DNA of 29,176 bases. Origin: Cyanobacteria bacterium T3Sed10_344R1. Its GTDB lineage: Bacteria; Cyanobacteriota; Cyanobacteriia; Phormidesmidales; Phormidesmidaceae. How positions within the stretch are numbered: the first letter of the stretch is position 1; each line of letters opens with the position of its first letter. Location of the stretch: contig PXDR01000259.1 in NCBI GenBank assembly GCA_003566335.1, forward strand, positions 1 through 29,176, read 5' to 3'. The translations under genes and the position numbers were made by a program. This document shows positions 8,305 to 28,984 of the stretch, in pieces. The notes beneath the pieces were generated by a model that made no database searches, was not told the DNA's origin, and saw nothing but the letters and a program-made list of their open reading frames with translations.

Positions 8305-8694
8305 ATGCCCCAATGGAAACTCTCAACCGAATTCACCTTTGACGCCGCCCACTCCATCCGCGACTACGATGGCCCCTGCGGGCGCATGCACGGTCACACC
8401 TACCGAGTCCGGATTGAGGCAACATCTAGCAAACTCCACTCCTCCCAGTACTGCCCCCACCCGGTCATGGTGGCCGACTTCCGCACCCTACGCTGGGCTA
8501 AACGCGACATGCTAAAAGGAGGGCTTGACCACTGCGTGCTCAACGACGTGCTGCCCGAAGGCTACGAAACCACCGCCGAGATGATCGCCCAGTACATCTA
8601 CGACAAAACCAAAACAGACCTGCCAGAAGGGGTGAAGCTCAAGGTTTGCGTCTCCGAGACACCCAACTCCTGGGCCGAGTATGAAGGCGACTGA
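8305..8694 (+). CDS. queD: 6-carboxytetrahydropterin synthase
   Basis: FTFDAAH, CGRMHGHTY, LDHCVLND, TTAEMIA, VSET; first gene of a queD-E-C run. Confidence 0.92.
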   Translation: MPQWKLSTEFTFDAAHSIRDYDGPCGRMHGHTYRVRIEATSSKLHSSQYCPHPVMVADFRTLRWAKRDMLKGGLDHCVLNDVLPEGYETTAEMIAQYIYDKTKTDLPEGVKLKVCVSETPNSWAEYEGD

Positions 8695-9343
8695 GATGAG
8701 CGTCCCGGCCACGACCTCTCTGATCGCTGAGTTGCCACCAGCGCTGGCCCAAACTTTGCCGATAGTGGAAATGTTCCATTCCATTCAGGGAGAAGGTGCC
8801 TGGGCCGGCACCAATGCCTTCTTCATTCGGTTAGGGGGCTGCGATGTCGGCTGTCCCTGGTGCGACACCAAACAGTCCTGGAGCCCGAAGCGCCACCCCC
8901 AGCGGGAGGTAGGCGAACTGGTCACCGCCGCCAAAGCCGCAAACCCTCAGATTGTAGTCATTACCGGCGGCGAGCCGCTGATGCATGACCTGACGGTGCT
9001 CACCCAGCAACTCAAAGCGGCTGACCTCCAGGTTCACCTGGAAACTTCCGGTGCCCACCCCTTCAGCGGCAGCTTCGACTGGGTCACCTTTTCCCCCAAA
9101 CGGTTCAAGCCCCCCCACCCCAGCATCTACCCCCAAGCCAGCGAACTCAAGGTCGTCGTCGCCGACGAGACTGACCTGGCCTGGGCCGAGCAGCAGGCGG
9201 CCCAACTGTCCCCAACCGTGGACAAACGACTCCAGCCCGAGTGGGAAACGCCGGGGAGTCAGCAGATTGCGTTCAACTTCGTCTTGAAGAATCCAGGGTG
9301 GCGCGTTAGCCTGCAAACGCATAAGTTCTTGGGAGTCCAATAG
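8681..9343 (+). CDS. queE: 7-carboxy-7-deazaguanine synthase (radical SAM); alternative start at 8696
   Basis: [26 protein letters not shown] (CxxxCxxC), [23 protein letters not shown]. Confidence 0.95.
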
Positions 9344-9345
9344 CC

Positions 9346-10068
9346 ATGCCCCAGCCCAAAGCGATTGTTCTGTTGTCGGGGGGGCTAGACTCAGCCACCG
9401 CCGCGGCCCAGGCCATGGCCGACGGCTACGCCCCCATCGCCCTCTCCTTCCGCTATGGCCAGCGCCACGAGCGGGTGCTGGAGGCGGCTCGCCACGTCGC
9501 CGCCCACCTGGGCATTGCCGCCCACCACATCATGGACGTGAACCTTGCCCAGTGGGGCGGATCTTCCCTCACCGACCTGAACGAGACCCTGCCCCAGGAC
9601 GGGGTACAGACCGGGGCGATTCCCTCCACCTACGTGCCAGGGCGCAACACCGTGTTCATTGCCATTGCCCTCTCCCTGGCCGAGGCCAAAGGGGCCGAGG
9701 CCATCTACCTGGGCATCAATGCTGTGGACTATTCGGGCTACCCCGACTGTCGGCCCGAGTATTTGGCGGCCTTTCAACAGCTGGCCCAGCTCTCCTCCAA
9801 GGCCGGGCTAGAGGGCAAAGCCCCTGAGCTAGTGGCCCCCCTAGTAATGGACTCTAAGGTCGATATCGTCCACCGTGCCCTCGGCCTGGGGGTACCCATC
9901 GAAAAAACCTGGTCTTGCTATGAGGGGGACGAGGAACCCTGCGGACGCTGTGATTCTTGCCGAATTCGCGACAAAGCCCTGATTGACGCCGGACGTCCCG
10001 ATCTGGCAACGTTGGTAGGCCGAAGACTATACGCCCAGGAGACCGAATGCCCAACCCCCGTGTCTTAG
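9346..10068 (+). CDS. queC: 7-cyano-7-deazaguanine (preQ0) synthase
   Basis: [41 protein letters not shown]. Confidence 0.96.
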
Positions 10069-12140
10069 TCATTACATCCTGCACTGGGGAGAAGCGCTGC
10101 AAGCCAGAAAACCAGCTCAGACTCGACGATTTTCGAGACCCAAGTCGGCTGCGCGATCGCCAATCTGAACTGGCCGAGTACGCCTGTCAAGCCGGTGAAA
10201 TATATACGGGTATGCAGCATCTACGGCTGATGGAGGGTGTCCAGGCGTTGCGGGAAGCTTTGGGAGTCGATGCATTGGAGGTCGAAATCCTCTCCGCTGG
10301 GTATGGGCTCATTCCAGAGCACCAGAAGATCGTCCCCTACGAGGTCACATTCAATGGGATGAAGAGCCAGGAGGTGGATGAGTGGGCACAACATTTGGGC
10401 GTCCAAGACGCGGTTGAGCAGCGACTGGAGTCGGCAGACCTGGTCTTTTTTTTGTTGGGTGATAACTATTTGCGATCGCTCCAACTGCCCATCCAAACCC
10501 GACCCGACCAAACCCTGGTTTTCCTGGCCTCCGGAGGTTCTGCCAAGAAGCTGCCCGACCTGGCCGCCAAGACGTTTGTGCTGCCCCTCTCCAACCAGGA
10601 GGCAAAGCGTTACCGATACGGTTTGGTAGGGCTGAAAGGCTTTCTCTTCAAGCAGTTTGCCGAAGCTGTGGTAGTTAAACCTGAATTACTGAATCAGGTC
10701 AAAACTAATCCAGAGATCTTTCAGCAGATTATCGACGGCGAAGTTGATCAGCCCTCTGAGCAGTTGGCTTTAACTTCTCTGCTAGACCAGGTACCCACTA
10801 CTCCTAAAGCCTCAAACACTAGCCAGAAGACAACAACTGGTCGGTCTAGCAAAGACGAATTCTTGCCCATTCCCGATGTGCCACCGGCAGCTAATATCCA
10901 CCTGGGAATGCAGTACTACATTCCAGAATGGGATGACCACGTAGACCCCAACTACGACTTCCTAAACGATCGCCTCACCCCAGGGCGTGATCCCCACCAC
11001 GATGAGGTCTATGCCCACCAGATCTACGACGCCCCCAACTACGACGGCATTCTGGTGTCGAAGGTGGTGGTGGACAGCAGCAAGAAAAAGCGAGCACGGG
11101 TCGAGGCAGTTGGCATCCACGACTTCATCCGATATCAGGGGCCGGTCATGGGTGACTGTGGAGCCTTTGGCTACGTCAAAGAGGAAGAGCCTCCTTACAA
11201 TACGGTCGAAATTCTGGACTACTACCAGAACCTTGGCTTTGACTATGGCGTTAGCATCGACCACCTAATCGTCGGTCCTTTTGCTGTACCTGGTATTCGA
11301 GAAAAGCGGTACGAGCTGACTATGAAGAACGCCCAGGAGTTCTTCGAGAAGCATCAGGCTGGGGACTACACGTTCACTCCCATAGGGGTCGCCCAGGGTT
11401 GGAACCCTGAAACCTATGCTGAATCGGTAAAAGAGAACATTCGCGTGGGGTACGACTACATTGCCCTGGGGGGGCTGGCCCGAGCCCAGAGCCGAGAAAT
11501 TGTGGAGATTATGCAGGAGGTGCGGCCCCACCTCACCCCCAACATTCGACTCCACCTGTTTGGGGTGGCTCGGATCAACGCGATTCCGGTATTTCGGCAT
11601 CTGGGCATTACTAGCTTCGACTCGGCCAGTCCCCTGCGGCGAGCCTGGTTGGGTTCTGGGGCAAACTACCACACTGTTTCCAGCAAGATGTATACGGCAG
11701 TGCGGATTCCGCCCGTGGATGGCCATGGGGTGCGGGTGAAGCGGTTGATCGAGGCGGGGGTGGCTGAACGGGACACGTTGAAAGGCCTAGAGCAGAAAGC
11801 GTTGAAGGCGCTGCGGGCCTTTGACCAGGGGGAGTTGGGCCTGGAAGAGGCCCTAGAGTCGTTGCTAGCCTACGACGAACTGCTGGAGCTGCCCAAGGAT
11901 GGCAAGGCTGACCCGGTGGAGCAGGCCAAGCGGCGAGTGAAGCATGAGCGCATGTATCGGGATTTGCTGCGCGATCGCCCCTGGCAGCAGTGCAACTGCG
12001 TGATCTGCCAGGAGGTCGGGGTCGAGGTGGTGATCTTTCGGGGGAACGATCGCAACCGGCGGCGGGGGTTCCACAATACCCGAGCCTTTTATCTGCGGTT
12101 TCAGGAATTGCTGGCGAAGCTGAAGGAAGAGGACACTTAG
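10047..12140 (+). CDS. dpdA: DpdA-type DNA 7-deazaguanine transglycosylase with an N-terminal DUF6884/YaaA-like domain
   Basis: TGT part: [83 protein letters not shown], as in bacterial DpdA. N-terminal ~230 aa: [25 protein letters not shown]. Overlaps queC by 22 nt. Confidence 0.85.
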
Positions 12141-13738: not shown

Positions 13739-13823
13739 AATCTCTCAAACTTATTTGATGTTGAAGCTTCTAAACGACAAAAATACTGCATAATTTTTGT
13801 GTTTACCAGCCTACGGTCATCCT

Positions 13824-16181
13824 ATGATAGCCAGTCCTCCCCAATTCAGCGCATCTGCTGTGGCCACCCCGGTCCAGCAGGCAGTCCTGGATCGGGATCT
13901 GCTCAATTCTGGTTTTCACTGCATCCTGCAAATGCCCACGGGCAGCGGCAAAACCTGGCTGGCTGAGCAGGCCATTGGGCACACCCTGGCCCAGGGGAAG
14001 CGGGCCATCTATCTCACCCCCCTACGAGCCCTGGCCGATGAGCTGTGCGATCGCTGGCAGCGGCGCTTTGTGTCCCACCCGGTGGGCGTCTTTACTGGCG
14101 ACTACGCTAGCGGCCAGTATCCCGTCTCCTTCCAAAACGCTCAGCTGCTGGTGATGACGCCAGAAAAGCTGGATGCCTGTACTCGCCATTGGCGATCGCA
14201 CTGGAGTTGGCTCCCCACCGTCGATCTGATTGTGGTAGACGAGTTTCACCTGCTGGGCGACCCCAACCGAGGCCCCCGCCTAGAGGGGGCGCTGCTGCGG
14301 ATGCTGCGCCTCAACCCGTTCCTGCGTATTTTGGGACTCTCGGCTACCCTGGGCAATCGGGTGGAGTTAAGTGACTGGCTGGGAGGGGTAGAGTACGCAT
14401 CGAGCGATCGCCCTATTCCCCTCCAGTGGTCTACGGTCCACTACAAAAAGGCTGACGACAAACCGGCTCTACTGCTGCGGGAGGTGCGGCGTAACCTCGC
14501 CCAGGGCGGCAAAAGCCTTGTCTTTGTGCAGAGTCGTCGCCGAGCGGAGGCCCTGGCCAACCAGCTCCAGGACGCTGGCCTGCGGGTGACCCACCACCAC
14601 GCTGGGTTAGACCACCAATCTCGCCGCCAAGTGGAATCGGACTTTCGCACGGGTCAGCTTGACGTCCTGGTGGCCACCGCCACCCTAGAGATGGGCCTGA
14701 ACTTGCCCGTGCGCCAGGTTATCCTCTACGATCTGCAGGGCTTTGATGGGCAAGACTTTGTGCCGTTGCCGGTCAATAGTGTGTGGCAGCGGGCAGGCCG
14801 AGCCGGTCGCCCGGGCCTGGATAAGTTCGGCGAAGTGGTGCTGATTGCCCCCATCTGGGGACAGGTGGGGCACTACCCCCAAGGCCAATTCGAGCCGCTG
14901 GTGTCTGGGCTGAGTCAGCCTGCGGCTCTGGCCGAACAAATTGTGACCGAGGTGGCCTGCGGCCTGAGCTGTACTGAGGCGCAGCTAGCGGCTAACTTTA
15001 GCCATAGCCTGGCAGCTCGGCAGGGCCGACTGTCCTCCATCCGCCAGCTAGTGGACGAGATGCTGACGGCGGGCATGTTGACCACGGTCGAAGATGGGCG
15101 ACGCATCCTGCTGCGGGGCACTCGGCTGGGCCACGTTGCGGTGCGCCACATGCTGCGGCCCCAGACAGTGCTGCTTTTTCGGCGGGTGTTAGAGCAGTAT
15201 CCCCAGCTCACGTTTCTAGACTTGCTGCTGGTGGCGGCCAGCAGTTCCGACTGCCAGCCTCTGATTCCGGTGGACTTCGAGCAGCTCGACGATCTGGCGG
15301 AGGCTCTCGGTGAAGAACCGTCTGTACTGCTGTCGTTGTCGGAGGTGGGCCTGACACAACTGCTGGGTATTGAGGGCAAACGTCTGCTGGCCGCTATCCA
15401 AACGGCCTTGGTGGGCCGCACCTGGACTCGGACCGGCGATGGGGCGATCGCCGCCGAAACCCACGGCTGCTATGCCTTTGAGGTGCAACGGCTGCGAGAC
15501 TCGTTACAGCGACTGTTGGCTGCCATGGTCGATTTGTGGTCCGTCTCCCAAGAGGGGGAGGTGCCTCCCTCGGAGGGACCGTCGCTGCTGGAGCAGATGC
15601 GGGTACTGGAGAAGATGGTGGCCTGCGGCCTAGATGAGCAGGCCGTGACCCTGACCATGGTGCCCGGACTAGGGGCAAAGCTGGCCCGGCAGCTCAAGGA
15701 AGCTGGTATCCAAGATGTGGAGGATTTGGCCCTGACTGATCCCAGCGACCTACTGGCGGTGCCGGGGGTGGGGCAAAAGCGGGCTGAAAGCTGGTTAGCT
15801 GCCGCTGAGGAGATGGTCGATGGGCACCTTTCGGCGTTTCGCTACCGAGAAGAGGCTTCAGCGAACCGGTTCTGCCCTTCTGACTGGCCCCCCGACGTTG
15901 ACCCATACCGGCTTCGGCGCGCCTTGGACTTAAAGGTAGTCGGACAGGATGGCAATCTGTTCCGCGTTGTGGGGGGGCTTGATCCTCACATCGTGTGGTT
16001 TCGTCAGGGTGGGTTTGTGTGCGACTGCCCCGATTCTAAGCGCCACACCTGTAAGCACATTTTACAGGTGCGGCTGTTTCGGGGAGACGCCCAACTGCGC
16101 CGCCTGGCCCAGGCCTTGTCCGCAGAGAGCAACCCAGACACCCTCGATATCTATAGTCTGTGGTGGAGGGGGAACCGATGA
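13824..16181 (+). CDS. Ski2/Hel308-like SF2 helicase with C-terminal HhH repeats and a SWIM-like zinc finger
   Basis: MPTGSGKT, PLRALA, VDEFH, LSATLG, HHAG, ATATLEMGLNLP, QRAGRAGR; VPGLGAKLARQL / VPGVGQKRA (HhH); CDCPDSKRHTCKH (SWIM-like). ATG 13824 preferred over TTG 13797. Confidence 0.88.
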   Translation: MIASPPQFSASAVATPVQQAVLDRDLLNSGFHCILQMPTGSGKTWLAEQAIGHTLAQGKRAIYLTPLRALADELCDRWQRRFVSHPVGVFTGDYASGQYPVSFQNAQLLVMTPEKLDACTRHWRSHWSWLPTVDLIVVDEFHLLGDPNRGPRLEGALLRMLRLNPFLRILGLSATLGNRVELSDWLGGVEYASSDRPIPLQWSTVHYKKADDKPALLLREVRRNLAQGGKSLVFVQSRRRAEALANQLQDAGLRVTHHHAGLDHQSRRQVESDFRTGQLDVLVATATLEMGLNLPVRQVILYDLQGFDGQDFVPLPVNSVWQRAGRAGRPGLDKFGEVVLIAPIWGQVGHYPQGQFEPLVSGLSQPAALAEQIVTEVACGLSCTEAQLAANFSHSLAARQGRLSSIRQLVDEMLTAGMLTTVEDGRRILLRGTRLGHVAVRHMLRPQTVLLFRRVLEQYPQLTFLDLLLVAASSSDCQPLIPVDFEQLDDLAEALGEEPSVLLSLSEVGLTQLLGIEGKRLLAAIQTALVGRTWTRTGDGAIAAETHGCYAFEVQRLRDSLQRLLAAMVDLWSVSQEGEVPPSEGPSLLEQMRVLEKMVACGLDEQAVTLTMVPGLGAKLARQLKEAGIQDVEDLALTDPSDLLAVPGVGQKRAESWLAAAEEMVDGHLSAFRYREEASANRFCPSDWPPDVDPYRLRRALDLKVVGQDGNLFRVVGGLDPHIVWFRQGGFVCDCPDSKRHTCKHILQVRLFRGDAQLRRLAQALSAESNPDTLDIYSLWWRGNR

Positions 16182-17110
16182 CCCAAACCAGCGTGGGCAC
16201 TCAACGGGGGCGATCGCTCTCAACGGCTCGGGGCAAAATACCTTTTCCGGCGTACCTGCCCGTCACCACCTTTGGCAAAAAGTATCCCCTCGACGACCTC
16301 ATTCGTCCCTACCTGCCTCGGCTAGCGGCGGCGGTTATGGTGAGCTACTACTATGCCCAGCAAATGGAGCCGGAGCAGCGCCCCAACCTGCCGATGTGGG
16401 TAGACTCTGGGGGCTTTGCTGCTCTGTTTGAGGGGGCCAAGATTCTCAAGAAGAGGGACGTTGGACTACTGGAGATCACCAACGGCGATGTGGTTGAGAG
16501 TCTTCACCCCAAGGATATTCTGGCGTTTCAGGAGGCTCATGCCGATGTGGCCCTGACCCTAGACTTTCCCATTCCCCCCAGCCTGGGTCTAAAGGAGAGC
16601 CAGCGGCGGCAGCGGCTAACGATCGCCAACGCGCTCTGGGCCCTGGCCAATCGTCGTCGCCAAGACCTGCGGCTCTACGCCTGCATCCAAGCCTGGGATG
16701 TGGCCTCGGCCCAGGCCTGTGCCGAGGCCTATGCTGGGAAGGGATTTGATGGGGTGGCCCTGGGCGGCCTAGTGCCTAGGGCCAAGGATGCCGACTTGGT
16801 GCTATCTATGGTGCGTGCCGTGCGGGAGGTCGTTGGAGATCTACCGATCCATGTATTGGGCTTAGGTAATCCCAAACTGTTGACACAGATCTACGAGGCC
16901 GGAGCCGACTCGGTAGACAGTAGTTCCTACGTTCAGTACGCCGCCAACGGTCGGCTTTGGTCTAACCCTAATCTGGAGCTGAAGGATCCCTCACCCACGG
17001 ATCGGCTGCACCTGGCTTTGTGTAATCTAGCTCTGGCGACAGGGCGGACACTTCCCCTTTCGGCGGCCCAACTGACCTTTGCTACGCTACGGTCAGCACA
17101 GGGGGGGTAA
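16178..17110 (+). CDS. tRNA-guanine transglycosylase-fold protein (archaeosine-TGT-like catalytic barrel only)
   Basis: VDSGGF, TLDFPIPP, CIQ, VALGGLVP, IHVLGLG, GADSVDSSSYVQYA. ATG 16178 overlaps the helicase TGA (ATGA), with a GGAGG upstream. Confidence 0.85.
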   Translation: MTQTSVGTQRGRSLSTARGKIPFPAYLPVTTFGKKYPLDDLIRPYLPRLAAAVMVSYYYAQQMEPEQRPNLPMWVDSGGFAALFEGAKILKKRDVGLLEITNGDVVESLHPKDILAFQEAHADVALTLDFPIPPSLGLKESQRRQRLTIANALWALANRRRQDLRLYACIQAWDVASAQACAEAYAGKGFDGVALGGLVPRAKDADLVLSMVRAVREVVGDLPIHVLGLGNPKLLTQIYEAGADSVDSSSYVQYAANGRLWSNPNLELKDPSPTDRLHLALCNLALATGRTLPLSAAQLTFATLRSAQGG

Positions 17111-17115: not shown

Positions 17116-19440
17116 ATGCGTTCTATCTTCTGCGGCACATCGGGCACCGACCCTCATCCTGGGCCTTTGGGTTGGGATGGGCTCGACCTCAGTGCTCCCT
17201 GGCCTGCGGTGTTGGATCTGCTGTGTCCCCAGCGATCGCTGCGCCCAGTACAGTGGGCCGCCCTGAGCGACCACCAGATTCTGGAGACTAACCAAAACCT
17301 GATTGTCTCCGCGCCGACCAATAGCGGTAAAAGCTTAGTGGGTTGGCTGATTTTGCTGGAGGCTTTGTGTCAGGGGAAGCGGGCCATTTTGCTGGAACCT
17401 CTGCGGGCACTGGCTCGGCAAATGGCCGATGAGCTGGAGGTGGCGTTGCCGAAGCTCAACCTCATTTTCGAGAAACGCTCGAATCTGAAAATCTCCACCG
17501 GTGACTACCGCATGGACGATGAGTTACCCTTTGGGCCACCTCCAGGGGGGGAGCTGGTGGTAGCAACCCCAGAGCGACTAGAATCCCTATTGCGGAACCC
17601 AGCCAATGGGCCATGGTTTGAGACGGTGGGGGCGGTTTGTGTGGATGAGGCTCACCTGATCAGCTCGCCCAGGCGGGGACCGACGCTGGAGTACTTGCTG
17701 ACCTCGTTGCTGTGTTTGCCGGTTCCTCCCCGTTTGGCGTTGCTGTCGGCGACGTTGGGTAATGTGGAACGGGCGCAGACCTGGCTGGCTCCTTGCTCGG
17801 TGGTCAGTGTGACCGAACGGCAGCCGCCCCTGGAGAAGTGGGTGGTGGCGTTGGAGGAGGGGGAAGATGCCAACGAGGTGGCGATCGCCCACGTTGCCGA
17901 GACCCTGAAAACGGCTGAAGCCCAAATCCTTATCTTTGTCTATCAGACTCAGTCGGCCCAGAAGCTGGCCCAAGCGATCAACGGCACGGTGGAGGGGGCC
18001 AACGCCCTGGCCTACCATGGCCAGATGAGCCAGGGGCAGCGGCAACAGGTGCAGCAGGCGTTTCTAGCGGGGGAGAGTCGTGCGATCGTCACCACGACTG
18101 CCCTGGCGCTGGGGATGAACTTACCTGCGACCCATGTCCTGATCCGCGATACCACTTTCCCGGGGGTAGGTCGGCTCGATAGCGCAGAGCTGTTGCAGAT
18201 GATGGGGCGAGCGGGCCGGGGTACCCAATCGGGAAAGGCGACTGTGCTGCTGCGTCCCAACGATAGCTGGGCAGAGGCGGATCTGGTGGCAGCGCTGCAG
18301 GCGGAGGTGCTGCCGAACTTTGCCTCGGCGTTTGAGCTAACCAGCAGGCGGATGGCCCAGGGACCACTGCCGTCCGGTACGGCTCAGGTGGCCGCTTTGC
18401 TCTCCCGCCATCCCGAAACGGGACTTTCTCAACCGTCTATCGGCCAGTTTTTGGAGAAGTCGTTGGGGGGACAGACCCTGGTTGGGCAGGTGCCGGCGGC
18501 CCTGCGGTGGCTGGAGTCGGAGACGCTAGCGTACCTAGAGCCCAACCAAAAGACTTACCACCTCACTGTCCTGGGCCAACGAGCAACCCTGGCTGTTTTG
18601 CCTCTGCCGCTGGCCGCTGGGTTGGCTCGCCTGCTGCGAGACTTGATGACGATTGACCCGGAAGATGGGTTGTTGGCGGACTGGCGATCTCTGGACCATC
18701 TGCTGGTATTGGATCTGCTGTCGGAACAGACGCCTAACCTACGTCGCTATAGCGGAAAGCTGGCTAGCCAACTGGAGAGTTGGTGCGAGGCGAACCCTAG
18801 CCAAACGCCACTACTCTTTCGCAAATGGATCTGGGGGACGGTGGGCCAGTCTCGGGCGGCGGAGATTTTGGGGTCGTTGGGAGTCGTGGCTGAGAAGCCT
18901 GGCCAAGGGACTGACCAATGGGCGCACCAGATGGGCTACCTGGCGATGCTGCGGGCTATGGTGCTGGGGCTGCGATCGCAGGGGGTTCCCATTGCTCAGC
19001 TAGAGCGACAGTACGGCCTCAAAAATCTGGAGGGCATCGAGGAACGCTGGCGCGACGATATGCTCTGGAAGTTGTCTGGGGTGGCTAAGCTGCTGGAAAT
19101 TCGCACGTTCTACTATCATCTAAAGGAAGACTGCCAGGCCAGTCCGGAACGGGTGAAGCGGGTGAAGCGATGCCTGAAGCGGCTGCGTTACCAGACCTAC
19201 GAGTTGCGGGAAGGGCTCAAGTACTGTTCTCCACTCGGCCACTTGCTGAGCGACATTCGCCGCATGCTGCCCCATCAAGAGCGAAAACTGGGAGTCCAGT
19301 CGATCCGCAGGTTGGAAGAGGCTGGTTTGTGTACTCCTCAGGCTGTTGTTGCCTTGGGTGTAGAAGATCTCAAACGACTTGGCTTAAGTAGCCTTTTCTC
19401 CCAGCAGATCGTTGCTTACTTCAAGTCACGCTTTCGCTAA
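17116..19440 (+). CDS. Second Ski2/Hel308-like SF2 helicase
   Basis: APTNSGKS, PLRALA, VDEAH, LSATLG, YHGQ, TALALGMNLP, QMMGRAGR; 5 nt after the TGT stop. Confidence 0.88.
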   Translation: MRSIFCGTSGTDPHPGPLGWDGLDLSAPWPAVLDLLCPQRSLRPVQWAALSDHQILETNQNLIVSAPTNSGKSLVGWLILLEALCQGKRAILLEPLRALARQMADELEVALPKLNLIFEKRSNLKISTGDYRMDDELPFGPPPGGELVVATPERLESLLRNPANGPWFETVGAVCVDEAHLISSPRRGPTLEYLLTSLLCLPVPPRLALLSATLGNVERAQTWLAPCSVVSVTERQPPLEKWVVALEEGEDANEVAIAHVAETLKTAEAQILIFVYQTQSAQKLAQAINGTVEGANALAYHGQMSQGQRQQVQQAFLAGESRAIVTTTALALGMNLPATHVLIRDTTFPGVGRLDSAELLQMMGRAGRGTQSGKATVLLRPNDSWAEADLVAALQAEVLPNFASAFELTSRRMAQGPLPSGTAQVAALLSRHPETGLSQPSIGQFLEKSLGGQTLVGQVPAALRWLESETLAYLEPNQKTYHLTVLGQRATLAVLPLPLAAGLARLLRDLMTIDPEDGLLADWRSLDHLLVLDLLSEQTPNLRRYSGKLASQLESWCEANPSQTPLLFRKWIWGTVGQSRAAEILGSLGVVAEKPGQGTDQWAHQMGYLAMLRAMVLGLRSQGVPIAQLERQYGLKNLEGIEERWRDDMLWKLSGVAKLLEIRTFYYHLKEDCQASPERVKRVKRCLKRLRYQTYELREGLKYCSPLGHLLSDIRRMLPHQERKLGVQSIRRLEEAGLCTPQAVVALGVEDLKRLGLSSLFSQQIVAYFKSRFR

Positions 19441-19477
19441 AAACTATGTGTTGATCAACTTGCAACTAAGTAGTAGC

Positions 19478-19483
19478 TATAAT
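19478..19483 (+). promoter_or_regulatory. Possible -10 element upstream of the 383-aa ORF
   Basis: Perfect TATAAT 41 nt upstream of ATG 19525; no correctly spaced -35 seen. Confidence 0.3.
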
Positions 19484-19524
19484 CCTAATCTTTAGTTTTC
19501 ACTGACACCTCTGAGCATTAAGAC

Positions 19525-20676
19525 ATGACAATCGATCGCATAAAAGAGCTGGAAGTCTTCTTGAATCGCAACTACTCCAAATACTTGAAGCTTCATGATA
19601 AGTGGTTCAGGAGTGATTGGGCTGCCAATGACTTCACTGAAGAAAGCTTTGTCTTCTTCAATGAAATTACATGCTTGAAAGTGGTTAACCCGCATGTAAA
19701 ATTACTTATCTCGAATATATGGCCTATCGATCAGAATTTCCACAACTTTTTATTAGAACTCTGTTCATACAGTCTCAGTATCAAGCGCCCAGACAGTGCC
19801 AGATATGATTTTGAGCGCATGAAATTCGTTAATTGGTGCATGATTGCCTACTGGCTAGCCTGGTATGAGCTTGTCGAAATTGAACTAGAGCCTTTAAGAC
19901 TTCTGAAAATACCAGTAAACAAGTATAACTTAGATCTTCGGCTTTTAGCGCTTGAGGCTAAGGTATTAGAACACGCTAGCTGGAATAAGATAAAACAAGA
20001 AAATCATCACCGTTATTCTCCGCTTTGGCAGAAAAACTTTGAGTCATCCGCACTTAAAGCAAAAGTTTTACATCGGATGCTGAAGATTGCAAAGGAATTT
20101 CACAAATATTATAAAATATCTCCAGATCGCGCCTTTCGGATTTGGCGTTTATGCATATTGGAGATTCGGGAAGATGACAGAGATGCCACTCTTCAACCAT
20201 CTCAGCCTAAAAACAAGCTTCAGGATGGGATCGAAAAAACATATAAAATACTAAAATCTGGCAAGAACCCGTTTGAGCCAAATGAGAAAACGAAGTATTT
20301 ATACGTTTTTTTCAGTCTCACCGAAAAAATCTTGGATGGAAAAAGCTTTCCGGCTAAGAAGTCAGGAGCATTTCAGGGTGATTTTTGGAAGCCGTTCTTG
20401 AAAGGAGTACTTAAGTTCACCCAGTTTTCCGAGGAGGATTCACCTAATCGGATCCCCTACGAGGTTAAAGATGCTCAGCTAAATAGACGACAGGGTAAAA
20501 GTCTATATAGAGTTCCCGTCCTAGATAGAGAGAGGCCTCGCTCAGCGGTAACGTCTTTCAGGATTCCTGGAAGGAGTATTGAAGGTAAGTTCGAGGTTCC
20601 GCTACCCCATAGAGCAGCTAGGGTTTTTGCTGTAGAGCATACTTCTGACCTTTCTGGAGACGATTACACTCCATAA
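19525..20676 (+). CDS. Hypothetical protein (AT-rich, no recognised family)
   Basis: 383-codon ORF in AT-rich DNA, unlikely by chance, followed by a terminator. Confidence 0.7.
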   Translation: MTIDRIKELEVFLNRNYSKYLKLHDKWFRSDWAANDFTEESFVFFNEITCLKVVNPHVKLLISNIWPIDQNFHNFLLELCSYSLSIKRPDSARYDFERMKFVNWCMIAYWLAWYELVEIELEPLRLLKIPVNKYNLDLRLLALEAKVLEHASWNKIKQENHHRYSPLWQKNFESSALKAKVLHRMLKIAKEFHKYYKISPDRAFRIWRLCILEIREDDRDATLQPSQPKNKLQDGIEKTYKILKSGKNPFEPNEKTKYLYVFFSLTEKILDGKSFPAKKSGAFQGDFWKPFLKGVLKFTQFSEEDSPNRIPYEVKDAQLNRRQGKSLYRVPVLDRERPRSAVTSFRIPGRSIEGKFEVPLPHRAARVFAVEHTSDLSGDDYTP

Positions 20677-20732
20677 AGTACGCAAGCTTACCTAGTAGCC
20701 GCAACCAGTCAACCTAAGGATTATTTTTCTAG

Positions 20733-20764
20733 AGCCTCGCAAGTCAATGCGGGGCTTTTATTTT
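20733..20764 (+). terminator. Rho-independent terminator
   Basis: Stem AGCCTCGCA / TGCGGGGCT (one G-T pair), 6-nt loop, then TTTATTTT. Confidence 0.75.
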
Positions 20765-20939
20765 AAGCGGCACAATCTACGGTAAGCCACCGGAGATTGT
20801 GAAGGCCTTTGACAGCAAGGGTTTCAGGGTTTACTACTTTTTTTGTTCAAATTTCCAGGCTTAAACCCTAGAGTACTTTCAGTATCTTCCAGGGTTCGTT
20901 TATTACCCTCTGGAGCTGTTCAAGCAATAGGAGAGACAA

Positions 20940-21344
20940 GTGAGTTGTAATTTTGAGTTGGCCACAACAGAGCAAGCCGCAGAAGTCCTAGGGTGTTCCA
21001 CGCACTGGCTCAAGAAACGTCGGCTCGACGGACAGCTACAGGAAGGAGTCCACTGGGTGCGAACTAATCAACGATCTATTCGCTACATAACGCCTCTCCT
21101 TAAGGACTACTTGAACAACAGAAACCAATTTTCAACCCATCGACAGTTTATTGTGAGCGACTTGATTTCTGATATTCCTTCTCTTAGCCCAAAAAACTAC
21201 AGCTATAGGAATAAAATTTTCGAGGTCATAAAGATTGCCAAAAAGATTCTTTTGCGTACAAGATTCCAAAAACATTCTTTTTTGAGGTTAGCTTGCCAGT
21301 CCAAATTCAAAAAACTCTTTCAGGCTATTTTTCGAATTATCTGA
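20940..21344 (+). CDS. Excisionase/MerR-like HTH protein, paralog 1
   Basis: LATTEQAAEVLGCSTHWLKKRRLDGQLQEGVHWVR; GTG start with AGGAGAG upstream. Confidence 0.65.
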   Translation: MSCNFELATTEQAAEVLGCSTHWLKKRRLDGQLQEGVHWVRTNQRSIRYITPLLKDYLNNRNQFSTHRQFIVSDLISDIPSLSPKNYSYRNKIFEVIKIAKKILLRTRFQKHSFLRLACQSKFKKLFQAIFRII

Positions 21345-21375
21345 GTTCAAGAAAATTACTACCTACCACAAAAAA

Positions 21376-21666
21376 ATGATGACTCAAGAATTTCAATTAG
21401 CTACAGCGAAACAATCTGCAGAACAATTAGGTTGTTCAGTTCACTGGCTGAAAAAGCTACGTCTTGACGGAAGGCTTCAGGAAGGCATCCATTGGGTGCG
21501 AATTGGCAAGCGATCAGTTCGCTACGTAACCCCTCTTCTAGTAGACTACTTTCGAAATCGACACCAACCTTCGGTTCACCAACATTTTGTCGAAAAATAC
21601 GTCGCTTCTTGGGAGTCGAATCAACCGAGTAGACCTGGTCGAAAGCCAAAGGCTTATAGAGCTTAA
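21376..21666 (+). CDS. Excisionase/MerR-like HTH protein, paralog 2
   Basis: LATAKQSAEQLGCSVHWLKKLRLDGRLQEGIHWVR; aligns without gaps with paralog 1 over about 65 aa. Confidence 0.7.
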   Translation: MMTQEFQLATAKQSAEQLGCSVHWLKKLRLDGRLQEGIHWVRIGKRSVRYVTPLLVDYFRNRHQPSVHQHFVEKYVASWESNQPSRPGRKPKAYRA

Positions 21667-21775
21667 ACGTATAACCCCTCAATACTTCTTTCGATAGGGA
21701 CTATCTACCTCCCTATCGAATCTTTGTTGCGTCATAAGTGTCTGAGCTATACAGCCTAATTCTGAAATCAGTCCC

Positions 21776-23395: not shown

Positions 23396-24616
23396 ATGAA
23401 GTTCGACCTCCACCTCCGATCGCAAGTCCGTGACCAGCTCAAGACGCTGGCCAGCGAGATGCAGGCGTGGCAAGCCCAGCCCCGCATCCAGCAAGACGAG
23501 GTCGAGCAGCTCAAGGCCGCGATCGCCACCTTTTCGCACACTACAGACCGAGAAACCCTGACCCTGGCCGGAGTGGACGGCAGCGGCGACTTCCCCCTCC
23601 TCAGCTATGCCGACTCCTTTGTCTATCTGGCTGTGGCCCAGGGCACTGCCTACCAAGCCGACCGACTCTGTGGGTTAAGAGAGGTCGCGATCGCCGCCGA
23701 GCCCATTTTCCAAACGGTCTGGCTCACCGAAGACAATATCATGTCTGACCAGGCGCTCGATCGCGCCTTTGGCGAGCTGGCTGGGATGGAGCCCCTGGCC
23801 GCCATTCAGGCCTCCGACTATCGCACCCTCAAGGCCCAAGTCGTCGGCAAACGCCTTAACCCCGATCAGCTTCTGGCCGAGCTAATTCGACCCAACGCCA
23901 GCGATACCGGCAACCTAGCGATCCAGCTTCGTTCGACAGCGGAGTTTGGGGCGGCCCTGCGGTTGCTGGAGGGGGAGGTGTTGCCCCAGTACCTGCTGGT
24001 CGATACCACCTTTTCGCTGCCGCTGGTCACTAACGCAGCCAATTCCCTGTTCTACGAGCACCTGAAGCGGTTGTGCTGTGTGAGGGCGCGATCGCAGGGT
24101 GTCGGATTTTTTGCGCTGTCCAAGTCCCACGGGCTACCCGCCATGGAGGTACTGGAAGACCTGGTGCGGGAGGTGCAGGGGCGAGAGCCGGGGCAGGCTG
24201 CCGAACACTGGTACCTGCGGATTCCGGAGCAGGTTAGGGATGGGTGGGAACTGTCGCTGACGGAGGGAAGACGGATTCCGCCGCCGGGGGTGGTGTCTTA
24301 CCTGGTGCGGTTCCACCGCACGACCCCCGTGATGCGGTTAGATATGGATCTGGGCTATTGGCAAACGGTGGTGAAAGGGGCCACTGAGGAGGAGACGCGA
24401 TCGCGAGAGTGCAAAATCTTTGAAGACCTCGACTACGCCTGCCACGACCAACGGGTCTACGGCTACCCCTACCCCATCAAGGCGGCCCACGGCCGGGCCT
24501 CCCTCACCCAGGCAGAACGGGTCGCGTTCCGGAAGCAGCTGGTCGCAGAGGCCGTGAAGCAGGGGATGAGCCCGGCCCTCTTCCGGGACCCCTCCCAGGC
24601 CACTGGCCACCGATAG
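23396..24616 (+). CDS. nurA: NurA-family nuclease
   Basis: LAGVDGSG, LLVDTT, ALSKS, GYPYPIKAAH; directly upstream of a HerA ATPase. Confidence 0.78.
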   Translation: MKFDLHLRSQVRDQLKTLASEMQAWQAQPRIQQDEVEQLKAAIATFSHTTDRETLTLAGVDGSGDFPLLSYADSFVYLAVAQGTAYQADRLCGLREVAIAAEPIFQTVWLTEDNIMSDQALDRAFGELAGMEPLAAIQASDYRTLKAQVVGKRLNPDQLLAELIRPNASDTGNLAIQLRSTAEFGAALRLLEGEVLPQYLLVDTTFSLPLVTNAANSLFYEHLKRLCCVRARSQGVGFFALSKSHGLPAMEVLEDLVREVQGREPGQAAEHWYLRIPEQVRDGWELSLTEGRRIPPPGVVSYLVRFHRTTPVMRLDMDLGYWQTVVKGATEEETRSRECKIFEDLDYACHDQRVYGYPYPIKAAHGRASLTQAERVAFRKQLVAEAVKQGMSPALFRDPSQATGHR

Positions 24617-24625
24617 GAGAAGACC

Positions 24626-26413
24626 ATGGAGTCGATGGATAGATTATTGGATAAGGTAGGCGATCGCTTCGGGGTGTTGGCCGAGAGCGACACCTACCAA
24701 CTGACGGTAGTAGCCAGGAACCTGGACGTGGCGGTGGGTGATCTGTTCTTGCTGCCCAGCAAGCGGGGGCCAAAGGATCGGGTCTACGTGTTTCGGGCCA
24801 ACCAGTACGCCAACGTCATGAATCGATCCTTGGAGATGGGCGACATCGCCCGCAACAAGCTGACCATGGAAGACTCCTACCTCAGCGAGGACCTGGCAGA
24901 GGAGTTGCTGATCGAGATGAAGGGGATGGTGCTGGGCTACGCGGAGCAACAGCCGGAGGAGTGGACCTTTCACCGGCCTCGGCGACTGCCGGAGCACCTG
25001 TCGAACGTGTACCGGGTCGATGCTCACCAGCCCGGTACGCCGGAGGTAATGAGGGAGCTGATGGGCAGCCAGCTCGGTACCGAGGGGCTCTATGTGGGTG
25101 ACCTACTGGCGGGGGAACAGGCACTGCCAGGGGTGAAGGTGTTTTTGCCCCCCTACGCGCTGTCTCACCACCTAGGGGTATTTGGCAGAACCGGGGCAGG
25201 CAAGAGCAACCTGATGATGGTGCTGCTGCGGTCAGTGATGGCCCACAACCAGGCGGCGGCGGGGGAGGTTCAGGGGCCGAGGGCTAGCGTGTTGGCGATC
25301 GACCCCCACGACGAGTTTCGGTTTTGGCATGGGGCCACTGGGGGCAAAGATGGTATCCACGGCATTGTGGAAGGCTATGGGGCCCAGGAGCAGGCCGAGC
25401 TAGTGGAGCCGTTCTACTACCTAACGGGACGGCAGTTGGCGACGGAGGGGCTGGAGCGGCGGGTGGTGCTGTCGCGGGCGGACGTGTTGCCGGAAGACCT
25501 GGTGAGCATTAGCGAGTTTTCGGAGCAGCAGGTAGCCTTCGTGAACCAGCAGTTTGCCCAGTGGGGTGAGCACTGGGTAGGGCGGGTGCTGATGGGCGAT
25601 ACCCAGGGACCAGGGGGCTTTGAGCAAGGCCCCGACTTTTTGCCGGGAACGGTGTCGGCGGTGCAGCGGCGGCTCGACTTTTTGCGGCGGGGGCGATCGC
25701 AGCTGTTCACTCCCTTTGATCCGGAGTTGGGGGCAGCCTACCAATCGCTACTGCCGGATTTGGTGTGTGCCTTGGAGCGGGGGCGGGTGGTCATCGTAGA
25801 TACGACGTTGATGGGGGAGATGGAGCAGTTTTTGCTGACCACTGTGGTGGCCCGCACGCTATTTACCCTGCGCCGGGCCCTACGCAGTGTGGAGAAGGGC
25901 AAAGACCTGGAGGGGGCCATGCGGCGCGCCCTGGGCAACGACGAAGATCAAGGGCAGGTGGGCCTGAGAACGTTGGCGGATGTGCTGGTGGAACGGTTGG
26001 AGTCGGGGGATTTGCCCTACCGAGTCGGGGATGACCTCAAGGCCACAGACCAACTGCCCTACGTGAACGTGGTGGTAGAAGAGGCTCCCAGCGTACTCAA
26101 CCCGCAGCGGATGAAGTTTGGGTCGGTGTTTCGGGACATTTCGCGCCAGGGGCGGAAGTTTGGCATTGGGCTGACGGTGGTGAGCCAGCAGGTGACCGAG
26201 ATCGACGATGGCGTGCTGACCCAGCTCAACACAGAGCTGGTGATGGCCCTGGGCAATGAGGCGGAGCGGAAGGCGGCGGTGAGAAATGCGTCGGCGGATT
26301 TGTCGGGGTTTGAGCGGGAGCTGCAGGTGATGGGTAAGGGGCAGGTGATGGTGTCGGGGTCGTATAAGGATGTGCCGCTGCCAGTGCAGGTGCCAGAGTT
26401 TGACCATTTGTAG
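24626..26413 (+). CDS. herA: HerA/FtsK-like ATPase (DUF87) with N-terminal HAS-barrel-like region
   Basis: HLGVFGRTGAGKS, IDPHDEF, VVVEEAP, RQGRKFGIGLTVVSQQ. Confidence 0.85.
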   Translation: MESMDRLLDKVGDRFGVLAESDTYQLTVVARNLDVAVGDLFLLPSKRGPKDRVYVFRANQYANVMNRSLEMGDIARNKLTMEDSYLSEDLAEELLIEMKGMVLGYAEQQPEEWTFHRPRRLPEHLSNVYRVDAHQPGTPEVMRELMGSQLGTEGLYVGDLLAGEQALPGVKVFLPPYALSHHLGVFGRTGAGKSNLMMVLLRSVMAHNQAAAGEVQGPRASVLAIDPHDEFRFWHGATGGKDGIHGIVEGYGAQEQAELVEPFYYLTGRQLATEGLERRVVLSRADVLPEDLVSISEFSEQQVAFVNQQFAQWGEHWVGRVLMGDTQGPGGFEQGPDFLPGTVSAVQRRLDFLRRGRSQLFTPFDPELGAAYQSLLPDLVCALERGRVVIVDTTLMGEMEQFLLTTVVARTLFTLRRALRSVEKGKDLEGAMRRALGNDEDQGQVGLRTLADVLVERLESGDLPYRVGDDLKATDQLPYVNVVVEEAPSVLNPQRMKFGSVFRDISRQGRKFGIGLTVVSQQVTEIDDGVLTQLNTELVMALGNEAERKAAVRNASADLSGFERELQVMGKGQVMVSGSYKDVPLPVQVPEFDHL

Positions 26414-26620: not shown

Positions 26621-28984
26621 ATGCTCGCTTCAGACCCTGTGATCAGCACGGGGGGACTTATTTCCCTTGAGCAGTTTTACGGAGCCTATAAGACGTTCCG
26701 TAAAGCGCCAAACACAGAACAAAAAGACACCATCAAGCCCGCCCCCACCGAACCGCTCTTCATTGTGGCGGGGCCGGGGACTGGGAAGACGACCTGCCTT
26801 ACCCTGCGCATCCTGAAGCTGGTGTTGGTGGACGGGGTGCCGCCTAAAAGTATTTTGGCGACCACGTTTACGAAGAAGGCGGCGGCGGAACTGCGATCGC
26901 GCATCCTGGGCTGGGGCTTTCGCATTCTGGAGGCCTTGCAGCGGGATGAGACGGTTCCGGCGGAGACTAAGCTGGCCCTCAGCCGCATCGACATCAACCA
27001 GGTAATGACGGGCACGGTGGATAGCCTGTGCGAACAGCTGCTGCGCGACTACCGAGACCCCGGCACCCAACCTCCCATCTTGGCGGACGACTTTGTGGCG
27101 AAGACGCTGCTGCTGCGGGAGGGGCTGCTGGCCGAGGAGCGCTACAGAGACGGAGATTTGGATCGGTTTCTGCTGGCGATTCAGGGGGGCAAGTGGGGCT
27201 GGAATGTGGGCAAGAAGGCTAACCTGCTCCAGCAGTTGTGGGACCGGCGGCACCAAGACCAGGTGGAGTGGGCCGAGTTTTTGGCCAGCGGCACCCGGTC
27301 AGATGACACGTTTGATGAGCAGAGGGCTCTGGACGTTCTCCGGGATGCGATCGCCGCCTACCAAACGGCCCTCGAAGATCGGCTGATGGTGGACTTTTCG
27401 CTTCTGGAGCAGGAGGTGTTGGTGCGCCTACAAGGAGGAAAACTGTCGGAGTTCACCAATCAGCTGCAGGTGGTGCTGGTGGATGAGTACCAGGACACCA
27501 ATCTGCTTCAGGAGAGTATCTATTTTGAGCTAGCCAGAGCCTGCAATGGAGCAATCACAGTTGTTGGAGACGACGACCAAAGCCTGTACCGCTTCCGGGG
27601 TGCCACTGTCGAGCTGTTTAGCGAGTTCGCTGCCCGCTTCGAGGAAAGGTTTGGACATCAGCCAGAGACGGTCTTTCTCAATAAGAACTATCGCTCAACT
27701 CAAGCCATTATCCAGTTCGTAAACGACTACGCCACGCTGGACCGAGGCTACCAGGTGGTACGGGTAGCCGAAAAGCCACTGTTGCTCCCTGGACTAGCAG
27801 CAATGGGGGGAATGCCCATTTTGGGTATGTTCCGCGAGAATGTGGAGCTATTGGCCAGAGATTTAGGTGACTTTGTCCACCAGGTCTTTCGGGGGGAAGG
27901 GTACTTGCTACCCGATGGTTCTCGCATTGTGGCGAATGGTGCAGGTGGAGACGTGGGGGATTGTGCTCTGTTGTGTAGCAGCCCTGCGGAGTACAACAGT
28001 AGCCACAGTGAGCGATTGCCGTTGTTGCTGAGAGAGGCGCTGCGCTTCAAGTCGCCATCGGTATCGGTCTTTAACCCAAGAGGACAGGAACTGAGTGAGA
28101 TTTCTAGGGTGGCCATCTTTGGGGGGCTCTTGTTGGAGTGCCTAGACCCTGGGGGAGCCGTTGAGGCTGAGATCCGAGGGCTGAGTCAGGATATTCAAAA
28201 GGTGTTTGAGCGGTGGCGCGAGGCCGCGATCGCCTTCGTAAACTCTGCCGATGCCCCTCCTAGGCTGCTTGAGTTTGCCCAGGGGTGGGCAAAGCGTCAG
28301 CCACAAAGGAGTGATTTGCGGTGGCCGTCAAGTGTGCCGGTGTTGGAGCTGATTTATGGGTTGGTTCACTTCTTCCCTGAACTTCACGATGACCCTGAGG
28401 GGCAGATTTACCTTGAGGTTTTCACCAGACAGGTATCGGCTTGTGAGCAGGTGGGCAAGTTTTCGGGCCGAGTGGTCTACAAACCCGATAATGCTGAGCT
28501 TTCGGATGCTTCTGTCAAGGAGTTGTTGCGGGACTTTTTGGGACCGATCGCATCGGGCACAGTGAAGGTGAACGAAGACTTGATGGAGGCGTTTCCCCGC
28601 GATCGCCTCAGCATTCTCTCGATTCACCAGTCGAAGGGGTTGGAGTTTCCGCTGGTAATTGTGGATGTGGGGTCAGACTTTAAGACAAACCACCAGGCCC
28701 ACAAGTTCAAGCGGTTCCCGAAAGATGGGGGCACGCCCCACACCATGGAAGATTTGCTGCGACCTCACACGGAGCTAAGCCGGCCTGGTCGATCGGGCCA
28801 AGACCGAGCCTTTGATGACCTCTACCGGCAGTTCTTTGTGGCTTACAGTCGTCCTCAGGAGGTGCTGCTGCTGGTTGGGCTAATGGCCACATTGCCTGAG
28901 GGCAACATTTCTAACGTTGCGACGGGTTGGGACCGCACGGACACCTCTGCCTGGCGCGGTGGTCGGCCCTTCGTGGAAGTTTAG
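26621..28984 (+). CDS. UvrD/Rep-like SF1 DNA helicase
   Basis: VAGPGTGKT, TFTKKAAAEL, VDEYQDTN, VGDDDQSLYRFRGA, NYRST, SIHQSKGLEF, VAYSR. Confidence 0.92.
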   Translation: MLASDPVISTGGLISLEQFYGAYKTFRKAPNTEQKDTIKPAPTEPLFIVAGPGTGKTTCLTLRILKLVLVDGVPPKSILATTFTKKAAAELRSRILGWGFRILEALQRDETVPAETKLALSRIDINQVMTGTVDSLCEQLLRDYRDPGTQPPILADDFVAKTLLLREGLLAEERYRDGDLDRFLLAIQGGKWGWNVGKKANLLQQLWDRRHQDQVEWAEFLASGTRSDDTFDEQRALDVLRDAIAAYQTALEDRLMVDFSLLEQEVLVRLQGGKLSEFTNQLQVVLVDEYQDTNLLQESIYFELARACNGAITVVGDDDQSLYRFRGATVELFSEFAARFEERFGHQPETVFLNKNYRSTQAIIQFVNDYATLDRGYQVVRVAEKPLLLPGLAAMGGMPILGMFRENVELLARDLGDFVHQVFRGEGYLLPDGSRIVANGAGGDVGDCALLCSSPAEYNSSHSERLPLLLREALRFKSPSVSVFNPRGQELSEISRVAIFGGLLLECLDPGGAVEAEIRGLSQDIQKVFERWREAAIAFVNSADAPPRLLEFAQGWAKRQPQRSDLRWPSSVPVLELIYGLVHFFPELHDDPEGQIYLEVFTRQVSACEQVGKFSGRVVYKPDNAELSDASVKELLRDFLGPIASGTVKVNEDLMEAFPRDRLSILSIHQSKGLEFPLVIVDVGSDFKTNHQAHKFKRFPKDGGTPHTMEDLLRPHTELSRPGRSGQDRAFDDLYRQFFVAYSRPQEVLLLVGLMATLPEGNISNVATGWDRTDTSAWRGGRPFVEV

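Follow-up and report, generated by a model that had tools for sequence, protein, structure and literature searches.

We analyzed a contig of 29,176 nucleotides (nt) from Cyanobacteria bacterium T3Sed10_344R1 (contig PXDR01000259.1 of assembly GCA_003566335.1, positions 1 to 29,176 of the forward strand), which we call the window. Our subject is a protein with the fold of the tRNA-guanine transglycosylases (TGTs), which we call TGTL. Its open reading frame begins with the ATG at 16178 and ends with a TAA stop codon (17108-17110, + strand), and it lies between two helicase genes (Table 1). A GGAGG-rich Shine-Dalgarno sequence is found at about 16165-16171, or 7-13 nt before the ATG, and just 5 nt separate the stop codon of TGTL from the start of helicase 2. 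Helicase 1, TGTL, and helicase 2 are packed closely together as a single unit, and we saw no convincing promoter or terminator inside it. As explained below, TGTL appears to lie outside the three named families of TGTs (bacterial Tgt, archaeosine TGT, and the DNA-modifying enzyme DpdA), it has lost the zinc site, and there is strong evidence that it works as one unit with helicase 1.

Table 1. Genes and sequence features of the window, with TGTL and its motifs first (aa, amino acids; SF, superfamily; pLDDT, predicted local distance difference test)
Feature	Position	Strand	Description
TGTL	16178..17110	+	310 aa, zinc-less TGT-fold protein; subject of the analysis
DSGGF motif	16403..16417	+	D76, general acid/base Asp; F80, base-stacking residue
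D129 of LDFPIPP	16562..16564	+	Asp that binds guanine N1/N2; D130 of archaeosine TGT
Q171 of CIQAW	16688..16690	+	Gln that binds O6; Q169 of archaeosine TGT
GGLVP loop, residues 196-200	16763..16777	+	lines the pocket for the 7-substituent
D247 of VDSSSY	16916..16918	+	predicted nucleophile; D249 of archaeosine TGT, D280 of Z. mobilis TGT, D256 of DpdA
Helix DRLHLALCNLA	17000..17032	+	remnant of the zinc-ligand helix; the preceding CxCxxC hairpin is deleted
LPL of the C-terminal tail	17051..17059	+	invariant, in a conserved tail; beyond the TGT fold, low pLDDT
ATGA overlap of helicase 1 stop and TGTL start	16178..16181	+	translational coupling; same 4-nt overlap in about 20 related loci
Helicase 1	13797..16181	+	Hel308/Ski2-like SF2 DNA helicase with helix-hairpin-helix domain; invariant partner of TGTL
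Helicase 2	17116..19440	+	second Ski2-like SF2 helicase (profile matches; 16/20 loci with full flanks)
QueD, QueE, QueC	8305..10068	+	cassette for preQ0 synthesis
DpdC(DUF6884)-DpdA fusion	10047..12140	+	NF041059, 485 bits; PADLOC DpdA and DpdC; recognized 7-deazaguanine DNA writer
NurA-like nuclease and HerA translocase	23396..26413	+	co-inherited with the module in many phyla
UvrD-type SF1 helicase	26621..28984	+	co-inherited; in relatives, a PD-(D/E)XK nuclease follows it

TGTL clearly belongs to the TGT superfamily. Its sole Pfam domain is TGT (PF01702, residues 19-275, 72.9 bits, cut-off 26.3), and it also scores above the cut-off for TIGR00449, the superfamily model of NCBIfam (68.7 vs. 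47.6 bits). The AlphaFold2 (AF2) model has a pLDDT of 89.1 and a predicted template modeling score of 0.88, and it consists of a single barrel and two C-terminal helices. This is the TIM-barrel fold of TGTs, with the N-terminal sheet and the three-stranded lid (strands 88-109) retained. In TGTs, the three-stranded lid covers the nucleic-acid substrate. Neither the Pfam and NCBIfam profiles nor the model show a PUA, C1, or C2 domain, so TGTL has only the barrel and, as an earlier note on this DNA had claimed, no C-terminal RNA-binding domain. Among the matches listed by VIA, the model aligns to bacterial TGTs with Z scores of 28-29 and a root-mean-square deviation of 2.4-2.6 Å over about 276 residues. 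With Foldseek, the E values are similar (3e-15 to about 1e-14) whether the match is a bacterial, a human, or an archaeosine TGT. The matches listed by both tools are mostly to the TGT of Zymomonas mobilis and do not include DpdA (7UI4) or the TGT-family protein Cap10, so they are uninformative about those two. The median isoelectric point is 8.3 for TGTL, 6.5 for DpdA, and 6.0 for Tgt.

We assigned the residues of the active site by aligning TGTL to the archaeosine TGT of Pyrococcus horikoshii and to bacterial TGT (PDB sequence search). D76 of VDSGGF, for example, aligns with D102 of the Z. mobilis enzyme and with D95 of both archaeosine TGT and DpdA. The roles of these residues are established for TGTs and for DpdA (PMC10164549). 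We then compared TGTL to 24 homologs that are 56-88% identical to it and range from cyanobacteria to Bacteroidota and Chloroflexi. D76, D129, Q171, G196, G197, V199, P200, and D247 are invariant in all 24, and the motifs that the earlier note had listed (DSGGF, LDFP, IQ, GGLVP, and DSSSY) were all found. This conservation supports the view that strong selection has kept the catalytic apparatus intact, and TGTL is probably catalytically competent. The GGLVP loop is of the archaeosine-TGT type (GGVVP), while bacterial TGTs have GGLAVGE and the DpdA of the window has GGLA. The motifs shared with archaeosine TGT (LDxPxPP, IQ, GGxVP, and DSxSY) would point to a preQ0-type pocket. Downstream of these motifs, the tail at 17051-17080 has a conserved Phe besides LPL, and it is absent from the zinc-bearing clade and from the Bacillota clade. 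The LPL tail is possibly a docking peptide for the helicase partner.

Despite these shared motifs, the earlier note's description of TGTL as archaeal-type holds for the pocket only. As a whole, the sequence seems to be about equally distant from the three families. TGTL scores far below the NCBIfam cut-offs for bacterial Tgt (TIGR00430, 43.5 bits, cut-off 306.75), for archaeosine TGT (TIGR00432, 57.9 bits, cut-off 350, with residues 109-261 only), and for DpdA (NF041059, 44.5 bits, cut-off 200, vs. 485 for the DpdA of the window). Because of these low scores, we consider that TGTL is, judging from its sequence, outside all three. Across the TGTL family, the best NCBIfam E values are also similar (archaeosine TGT, 1.3e-20; Tgt, 1.5e-19; DpdA, 9.3e-18), and in the PDB sequence search, TGTL scores 37 bits for archaeosine TGT and 35 bits for each of the other two. 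The earlier note had also suggested a phylogeny. In our tree, which is from a quick search and contains no archaeosine TGT sequence, TGTL does not cluster with the housekeeping Tgt: four bacterial Tgt sequences are separated from everything else with 100% support, and the TGTL lineages are together with a DpdA-like clade in an unresolved group.

TGTL is a real and strongly conserved family, not a chance pattern. A word-based search found 1065 clusters at 90% identity (E ≤ 0.001), and an exhaustive search found 85 clusters at 50% identity (E ≤ 1e-30). The family is present in at least 10 phyla and on plasmids, including plasmids of Nostoc, Picosynechococcus, and Deinococcus. It was found in just 1 of the 401 cyanobacterial genomes that we sampled, which is the window's own genome. 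In the phage collection that we searched, none carries the family, and there are weak matches to TGT-like proteins of STSV1 and STSV2 (27-28% identity). PADLOC 2.0 has no model for TGTL and gives weak DpdA matches only. In the literature that we searched, we found no description of a DNA-type TGT like this one, either zinc-less or coupled to a helicase. In all of the carrier genomes that we searched (13/13), a genuine Tgt that scores above the cut-off is encoded elsewhere. In the window's own assembly, which is 69.5% complete, we found TGTL and DpdA and no Tgt; the missing tgt is probably an assembly gap.

The earlier note's claim that TGTL lacks the CxCxxC motif, and that the terminal helix that usually carries the ligand (LAxHNL) reads LALCNL instead, was borne out. 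The CxCxxC...H zinc site is missing from TGTL, and the VIA alignment of the model extends to residue 290, which is placed on residue 357 of the Z. mobilis TGT. A sister clade (L036:9986-10996 and L037:9977-10933; we refer to genomic loci by L numbers) has CPCRVC ... LALHNL at the equivalent place, and the window's clade is gapped over about 21 residues of the alignment, where these proteins have the zinc hairpin. Because the zinc motif of the sister clade is at the same place, we attribute the gap to deletion of the hairpin. Across the family, about 5 of 49 full-length cluster representatives retain CxCxxC...HNL. Where the motif is gone, the residue that replaces the His varies (C, A, L, S, E, N, and so on), so the Cys in LALCNLA does not act as a ligand but is a relic. 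Zinc-bearing members are deep in the tree, and the zinc-less members form at least two groups (moderate support), which fits with a secondary loss of the zinc site. The zinc-bearing and zinc-less sister clades are a natural experiment on the role of the TGT zinc subdomain. As the earlier note stated, the zinc site is intact in the DpdC-DpdA protein of the window (CNCVIC ... HN).

To see which genes accompany TGTL, we compared 41 genomic loci from Cyanobacteriota, Bacteroidota, Pseudomonadota, Acidobacteriota, Verrucomicrobiota, Planctomycetota, Myxococcota, Thermodesulfobacteriota, Bacillota, and other groups. Many of these gene contexts are from fragmented metagenome-assembled genomes. If there is enough flanking sequence, then an ortholog of the Hel308-like helicase 1 is nearly always directly upstream of TGTL (36/37 loci), and in about 20 loci, the two genes share the ATGA overlap. 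The exhaustive search also identified natural fusions. Helicase 1 is fused to TGTL in P0142 and others. In one protein, a helicase (with DEAD, Helicase_C, helix-hairpin-helix, and SWIM domains) is followed by the TGT, and in several other proteins, the order is reversed (TGT and then a helicase with a helix-hairpin-helix domain). The adjacency, the coupling, and the existence of both fusion orders strongly indicate that the helicase and TGTL work as one unit, and they agree with the earlier note's view that TGTL depends on the flanking helicases. The position of helicase 2 varies: it is 3' of TGTL in the window and in other cyanobacteria, and in most other phyla, it is upstream of helicase 1 and divergently transcribed.

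A few loci are disrupted. In L005:7993-10028, a 2-kb insertion separates helicase 1 from TGTL; in L033:10001-10911, TGTL and helicase 2 are frame-shifted; and in L040:5511-6122, TGTL is truncated. On Deinococcus plasmids (L069:11230-16873 and L068:12028-13320), divergent TGTL proteins (34-39% identity) are coupled or fused to a helicase, and they adjoin UvrD, ribonucleotide reductase, or dnaN.

Besides the helicases, the window encodes an island with DpdA and DpdC chemistry and the preQ0 supply together at 8305-12140, followed by the TGTL unit and then by nuclease and translocase genes. Similar islands are found in distant phyla, where QueD, QueE, QueC, and the DpdC-DpdA fusion share the island with TGTL. 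Among loci with full 10-kb flanks, a second Ski2-like helicase is present in 16/20, UvrD in 13/20, HerA in 12/20, and NurA in 9/20 (in others, NurA is just past the edge). DpdA scored above its cut-off in 13/20 and 2/5 of the carrier genomes that we searched, and more loci show DpdA directly. Overall, DpdA is present in 25 of the roughly 35 carrier genomes that could be tested. In 11 of the 13 positive genomes of the larger set, DpdA is on the same contig as TGTL and 10-16 kb away, and it is always a DpdC-DpdA fusion of about 700 amino acids. Canonical Dpd genes are missing from the window: its open reading frames include no match to DndB or to a ParB-like protein (DpdB), and there is no DpdD-K operon, just generic helicase-level matches to DpdE and DpdF that are far below the cut-off. 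We conclude that the TGTL module is part of a widespread and undescribed variant of the Dpd island that lacks DpdB and DpdD-K.

The island varies in its details. In the window, an AT-rich insert (19441-23380, GC 0.41-0.45 vs. about 0.6 around it) splits helicase 2 from nurA-herA-uvrD. In L001, a close relative of the window, the UvrD and HerA genes are oppositely oriented. L019 (Singulisphaera) has the same gene set, including NurA, with DpdA on the same contig just beyond the locus. The complete island is present on a 38-kb plasmid of Picosynechococcus sp. PCC 73109 (L044, 1074-24115), which encodes the dpdA fusion, a helicase, the TGT, another helicase, PD-(D/E)XK, a UvrD-type helicase, a HerA-like ATPase, and NurA. 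Because a small plasmid of a cultivable cyanobacterium carries the whole island, this is a good experimental model. On a conjugative plasmid of Nostoc sp. NIES-3756 (L070), we saw dpdA, two helicases, and the TGT, and we did not identify the nuclease part. We considered and rejected L029 as an example of a QueCDE island without DpdA, because an IS630-type insertion/deletion truncates UvrD and QueC. An IS630-type DDE transposase lies between the truncated genes (L029:12096-16857); NurA, HerA, and DpdC-DpdA were lost, while the helicases and TGTL are intact. L029 is a decayed island. Finally, haloarchaeal plasmids, such as that of Natronosalvus (L045:5381-12076), encode pairs of TGT-like proteins (734 and 344 amino acids) beside a BREX-type ATP-binding protein. 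These are 26-28% identical to TGTL and probably belong to the BREX-related TGT systems of PMC12839542.

What does TGTL do? Most likely, it acts on DNA that the helicase has unwound and either exchanges a guanine there or takes it out. More specifically, and tentatively, we favor the idea that it is a catalytically competent zinc-less TGT that, as an obligate partner of the Hel308-like helicase, came to act on DNA, and that it inserts a 7-deazaguanine. To our knowledge, DpdA is the only enzyme family known to put 7-deazaguanines into DNA. In the proposed mechanism, helicase 1 (often with helicase 2) would unwind DNA and pass a single strand to the TGT barrel. Delivery as single-stranded DNA would remove the need to flip the base out of the duplex, which is the step that needs the DpdB ATPase in the canonical DpdA system. 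D247 would then attack a guanine nucleotide at C1', and D76 would serve as the general acid/base; guanine would leave, and a covalent enzyme-DNA intermediate would form. A preQ0-type 7-deazaguanine from the island's QueCDE would resolve the intermediate, and it is because of this proposed step that TGTL would be a helicase-driven inserter. The parts of this mechanism that we infer are the DNA substrate, its delivery as a single strand, the identity of the incoming base (preQ0), and how labor is divided with DpdC-DpdA. There is a precedent in that DNA transglycosylation by DpdA requires an ATPase partner (PMC10164549). If TGTL is a DNA transglycosylase, then TGTL and its helicase would be an independent solution to the problem of reaching a base within a duplex.

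Two loci from Verrucomicrobia bear on the incoming base. In L037:7443-13807 and L012:1-8368, helicase 1 and TGTL adjoin FolE2-QueD-QueE-QueC (and QueF as well in L037). We did not detect DpdA anywhere in either assembly, and NurA, HerA, and UvrD are not nearby. L037 has a zinc-bearing TGTL and L012 has a zinc-less one. Because TGTL is beside a preQ0 cassette and DpdA was not detected, these loci suggest that TGTL itself uses a preQ0-type base, and they may be stand-alone modules for helicase-driven deazaguanine chemistry. The earlier note had called TGTL an active enzyme that handles preQ0 or guanine. The link to preQ0 is upheld by the adjoining QueCDE genes, and activity is predicted from the conservation of the active site.

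Several observations weigh against the idea that TGTL is an inserter. DpdC-DpdA with QueCDE is already a complete writer, so a second writer looks redundant, and 8 of the 400 cyanobacterial genomes that we searched have this writer without TGTL. The helicase-TGTL genes occupy the position that restriction genes have in canonical islands. The two loci without DpdA both come from metagenome-assembled genomes, and from a single phylum, so a dpdA gene may have escaped assembly, and their que cassette could be the housekeeping one. Within 14 kb of the divergent TGTL genes on Deinococcus plasmids, there are neither que genes nor dpdA. Also, the zinc subdomain is a surface for dimerization and substrate binding in other TGTs, and TGTL has lost it.

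A rival explanation is that TGTL is a reader for the restriction half of the system, or a TGT-fold "restriction glycosylase." The helicases would thread incoming DNA past TGTL, which would attack normal guanines at target sites, so that guanine is released and a covalent adduct or an abasic site is left; the 7-deazaguanine that DpdC-DpdA has written in the host's DNA would resist the attack. The lesion or the stalled complex would recruit HerA-NurA and UvrD/PD-(D/E)XK, and foreign DNA would be degraded. The DpdC-DpdA/QueCDE writer is modular: it is found either with canonical DpdE/F/H-like genes or with helicase-TGTL-helicase, which is why we place the latter in the restriction slot. For example, in L046:45-12144, the genes after DpdC-DpdA and QueCDE encode a series of SNF2-like, DEAD-box, unknown (310 aa), and AAA proteins, which resemble canonical DpdE/F/G/H, and another cyanobacterial genome without TGTL has DpdC-DpdA with DndB, UvrD, and a different TGT. 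Across phyla, three nuclease/translocase genes are co-inherited with the module; both catalytic Asp are invariant, which implies selection for chemistry and not for mere binding; Dag1 and Dag2 are precedents for glycosylase-based defense; and L029 has kept helicase-TGTL intact after the insertion-linked loss of DpdA, NurA, and HerA. However, preQ0 cassettes beside TGTL without DpdA (L012 and L037) are hard to explain if TGTL does nothing but read unmarked DNA. A reader should also be toxic to its host where the writer is missing, yet DpdA is not seen in 10 of the roughly 35 carrier assemblies, and the invariant GGLVP loop fits the binding of a 7-substituted base. We consider a reader to be possible but rather unlikely. 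The inserter is ranked first, and the reader second, because the invariant GGLVP loop and the catalytic pair fit base exchange.

A more doubtful form of this idea is that TGTL is a "restriction transglycosylase." TGTL, carried by the helicase, would test the guanines of single-stranded DNA by the first half-reaction. The host's 7-deazaguanine could not be displaced, and the adducts or abasic sites in foreign DNA would be degraded by HerA-NurA and UvrD. If this is true, then self and non-self would be distinguished by the chemistry of the glycosidic bond, not by binding. A logic like that of type I or type III systems, with one subunit that both writes and reads, would reconcile the writer and the reader.

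It is improbable that TGTL acts not on DNA but on RNA that is unwound by the Ski2-like helicases, or that, in the manner of Cap10, it retains or passes on a 7-deazaguanine attached to a protein. The Ski2 family does include RNA helicases, and there are weak matches to RNA-helicase profiles; Cap10, a TGT-family protein without a zinc site, binds the deazaguanylated N-terminus of a protein; and there is a weak HORMA-like match near TGTL in L037. But helicase 1 is Hel308-like with a helix-hairpin-helix domain, a fused relative has a SWIM DNA-binding domain, and the co-inherited genes all encode DNA enzymes (UvrD, HerA, NurA, and PD-(D/E)XK). The nucleic-acid lid that Cap10 has lost is still present in the TGTL model. 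The window encodes neither a CD-NTase nor a Cap9-type QueC (its QueC is canonical, 222 bits vs. a cut-off of 150), and no CBASS Cap10 model or chain was listed for TGTL by PADLOC or the PDB sequence search.

A non-catalytic scaffold or guanine-sensing subunit is less probable still. The zinc subdomain, which all characterized nucleic-acid TGTs retain, has been lost, and QTRT2 is a precedent for a non-catalytic TGT paralog. However, pseudo-enzymes normally lose catalytic or pocket residues, and these are all invariant in TGTL across phyla, at about 60% overall identity, with the same active site in zinc-bearing and zinc-less clades. Lastly, PGAP names the protein "tRNA-guanine transglycosylase," but the scores far below the Tgt and archaeosine TGT cut-offs, the separate Tgt in 13/13 carrier genomes, the fully supported split in the tree, and the patchy distribution on plasmids and islands (1/401 cyanobacterial genomes) leave almost no chance that TGTL is a second housekeeping enzyme.

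Among characterized proteins, bacterial Tgt (from Z. mobilis, or 2ASH from Thermotoga maritima) gives the best structural matches to TGTL among those listed, and the two have the DSGGF motif and the pair of catalytic Asp in common. TGTL lacks the zinc subdomain and the E235-type peptide-switch loop of bacterial Tgt. Archaeosine TGT (ArcTGT or TgtA; 1IQ8 from P. horikoshii) gives the best single match in the PDB sequence search and shares the pocket motifs. Unlike archaeosine TGT, TGTL has no zinc site and no C1, C2, or PUA domain, and it is bacterial, island-borne, and linked to a helicase. Cap10 of type IV CBASS is also a TGT-family protein of defense islands that lacks the zinc site (10.1101/2025.04.06.647259). 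Its lid is remodeled into a dimer interface, and it binds a deazaguanylated CD-NTase, while the AF2 model of TGTL retains three lid strands. The window has no CD-NTase or Cap9 partner, and PADLOC and the PDB sequence search listed no match between Cap10 and TGTL.

Another close parallel is DpdA from Salmonella Montevideo (7UI4; PMC10164549). Like TGTL, it is a TGT barrel without RNA-binding appendages and with the same Asp/Asp/Asp site. Both are in 7-deazaguanine islands near preQ0 genes, both are on the same side of the tree relative to bacterial Tgt, and DpdA needs an ATP-driven partner, as TGTL presumably does. They differ in that TGTL is just 23% identical to the window's DpdA over 142 residues, has no zinc site, and has GGLVP instead of GGLA. 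The partner of TGTL is a Hel308-like helicase, while the partner of DpdA is the ParB/DndB-like DpdB, and TGTL coexists with a true DpdA in most islands. As in the canonical Dpd island (dpdA-K), the window joins preQ0 genes, a DpdA writer, and DpdC chemistry to helicases and nucleases. But in the window, DpdC is fused to DpdA, and helicase 1-TGTL-helicase 2, UvrD(/PD-(D/E)XK), and HerA-NurA replace DpdB and DpdD-K. TGTL islands are a handle on how self and foreign DNA are discriminated in Dpd-like islands without DpdB and DpdD-K.

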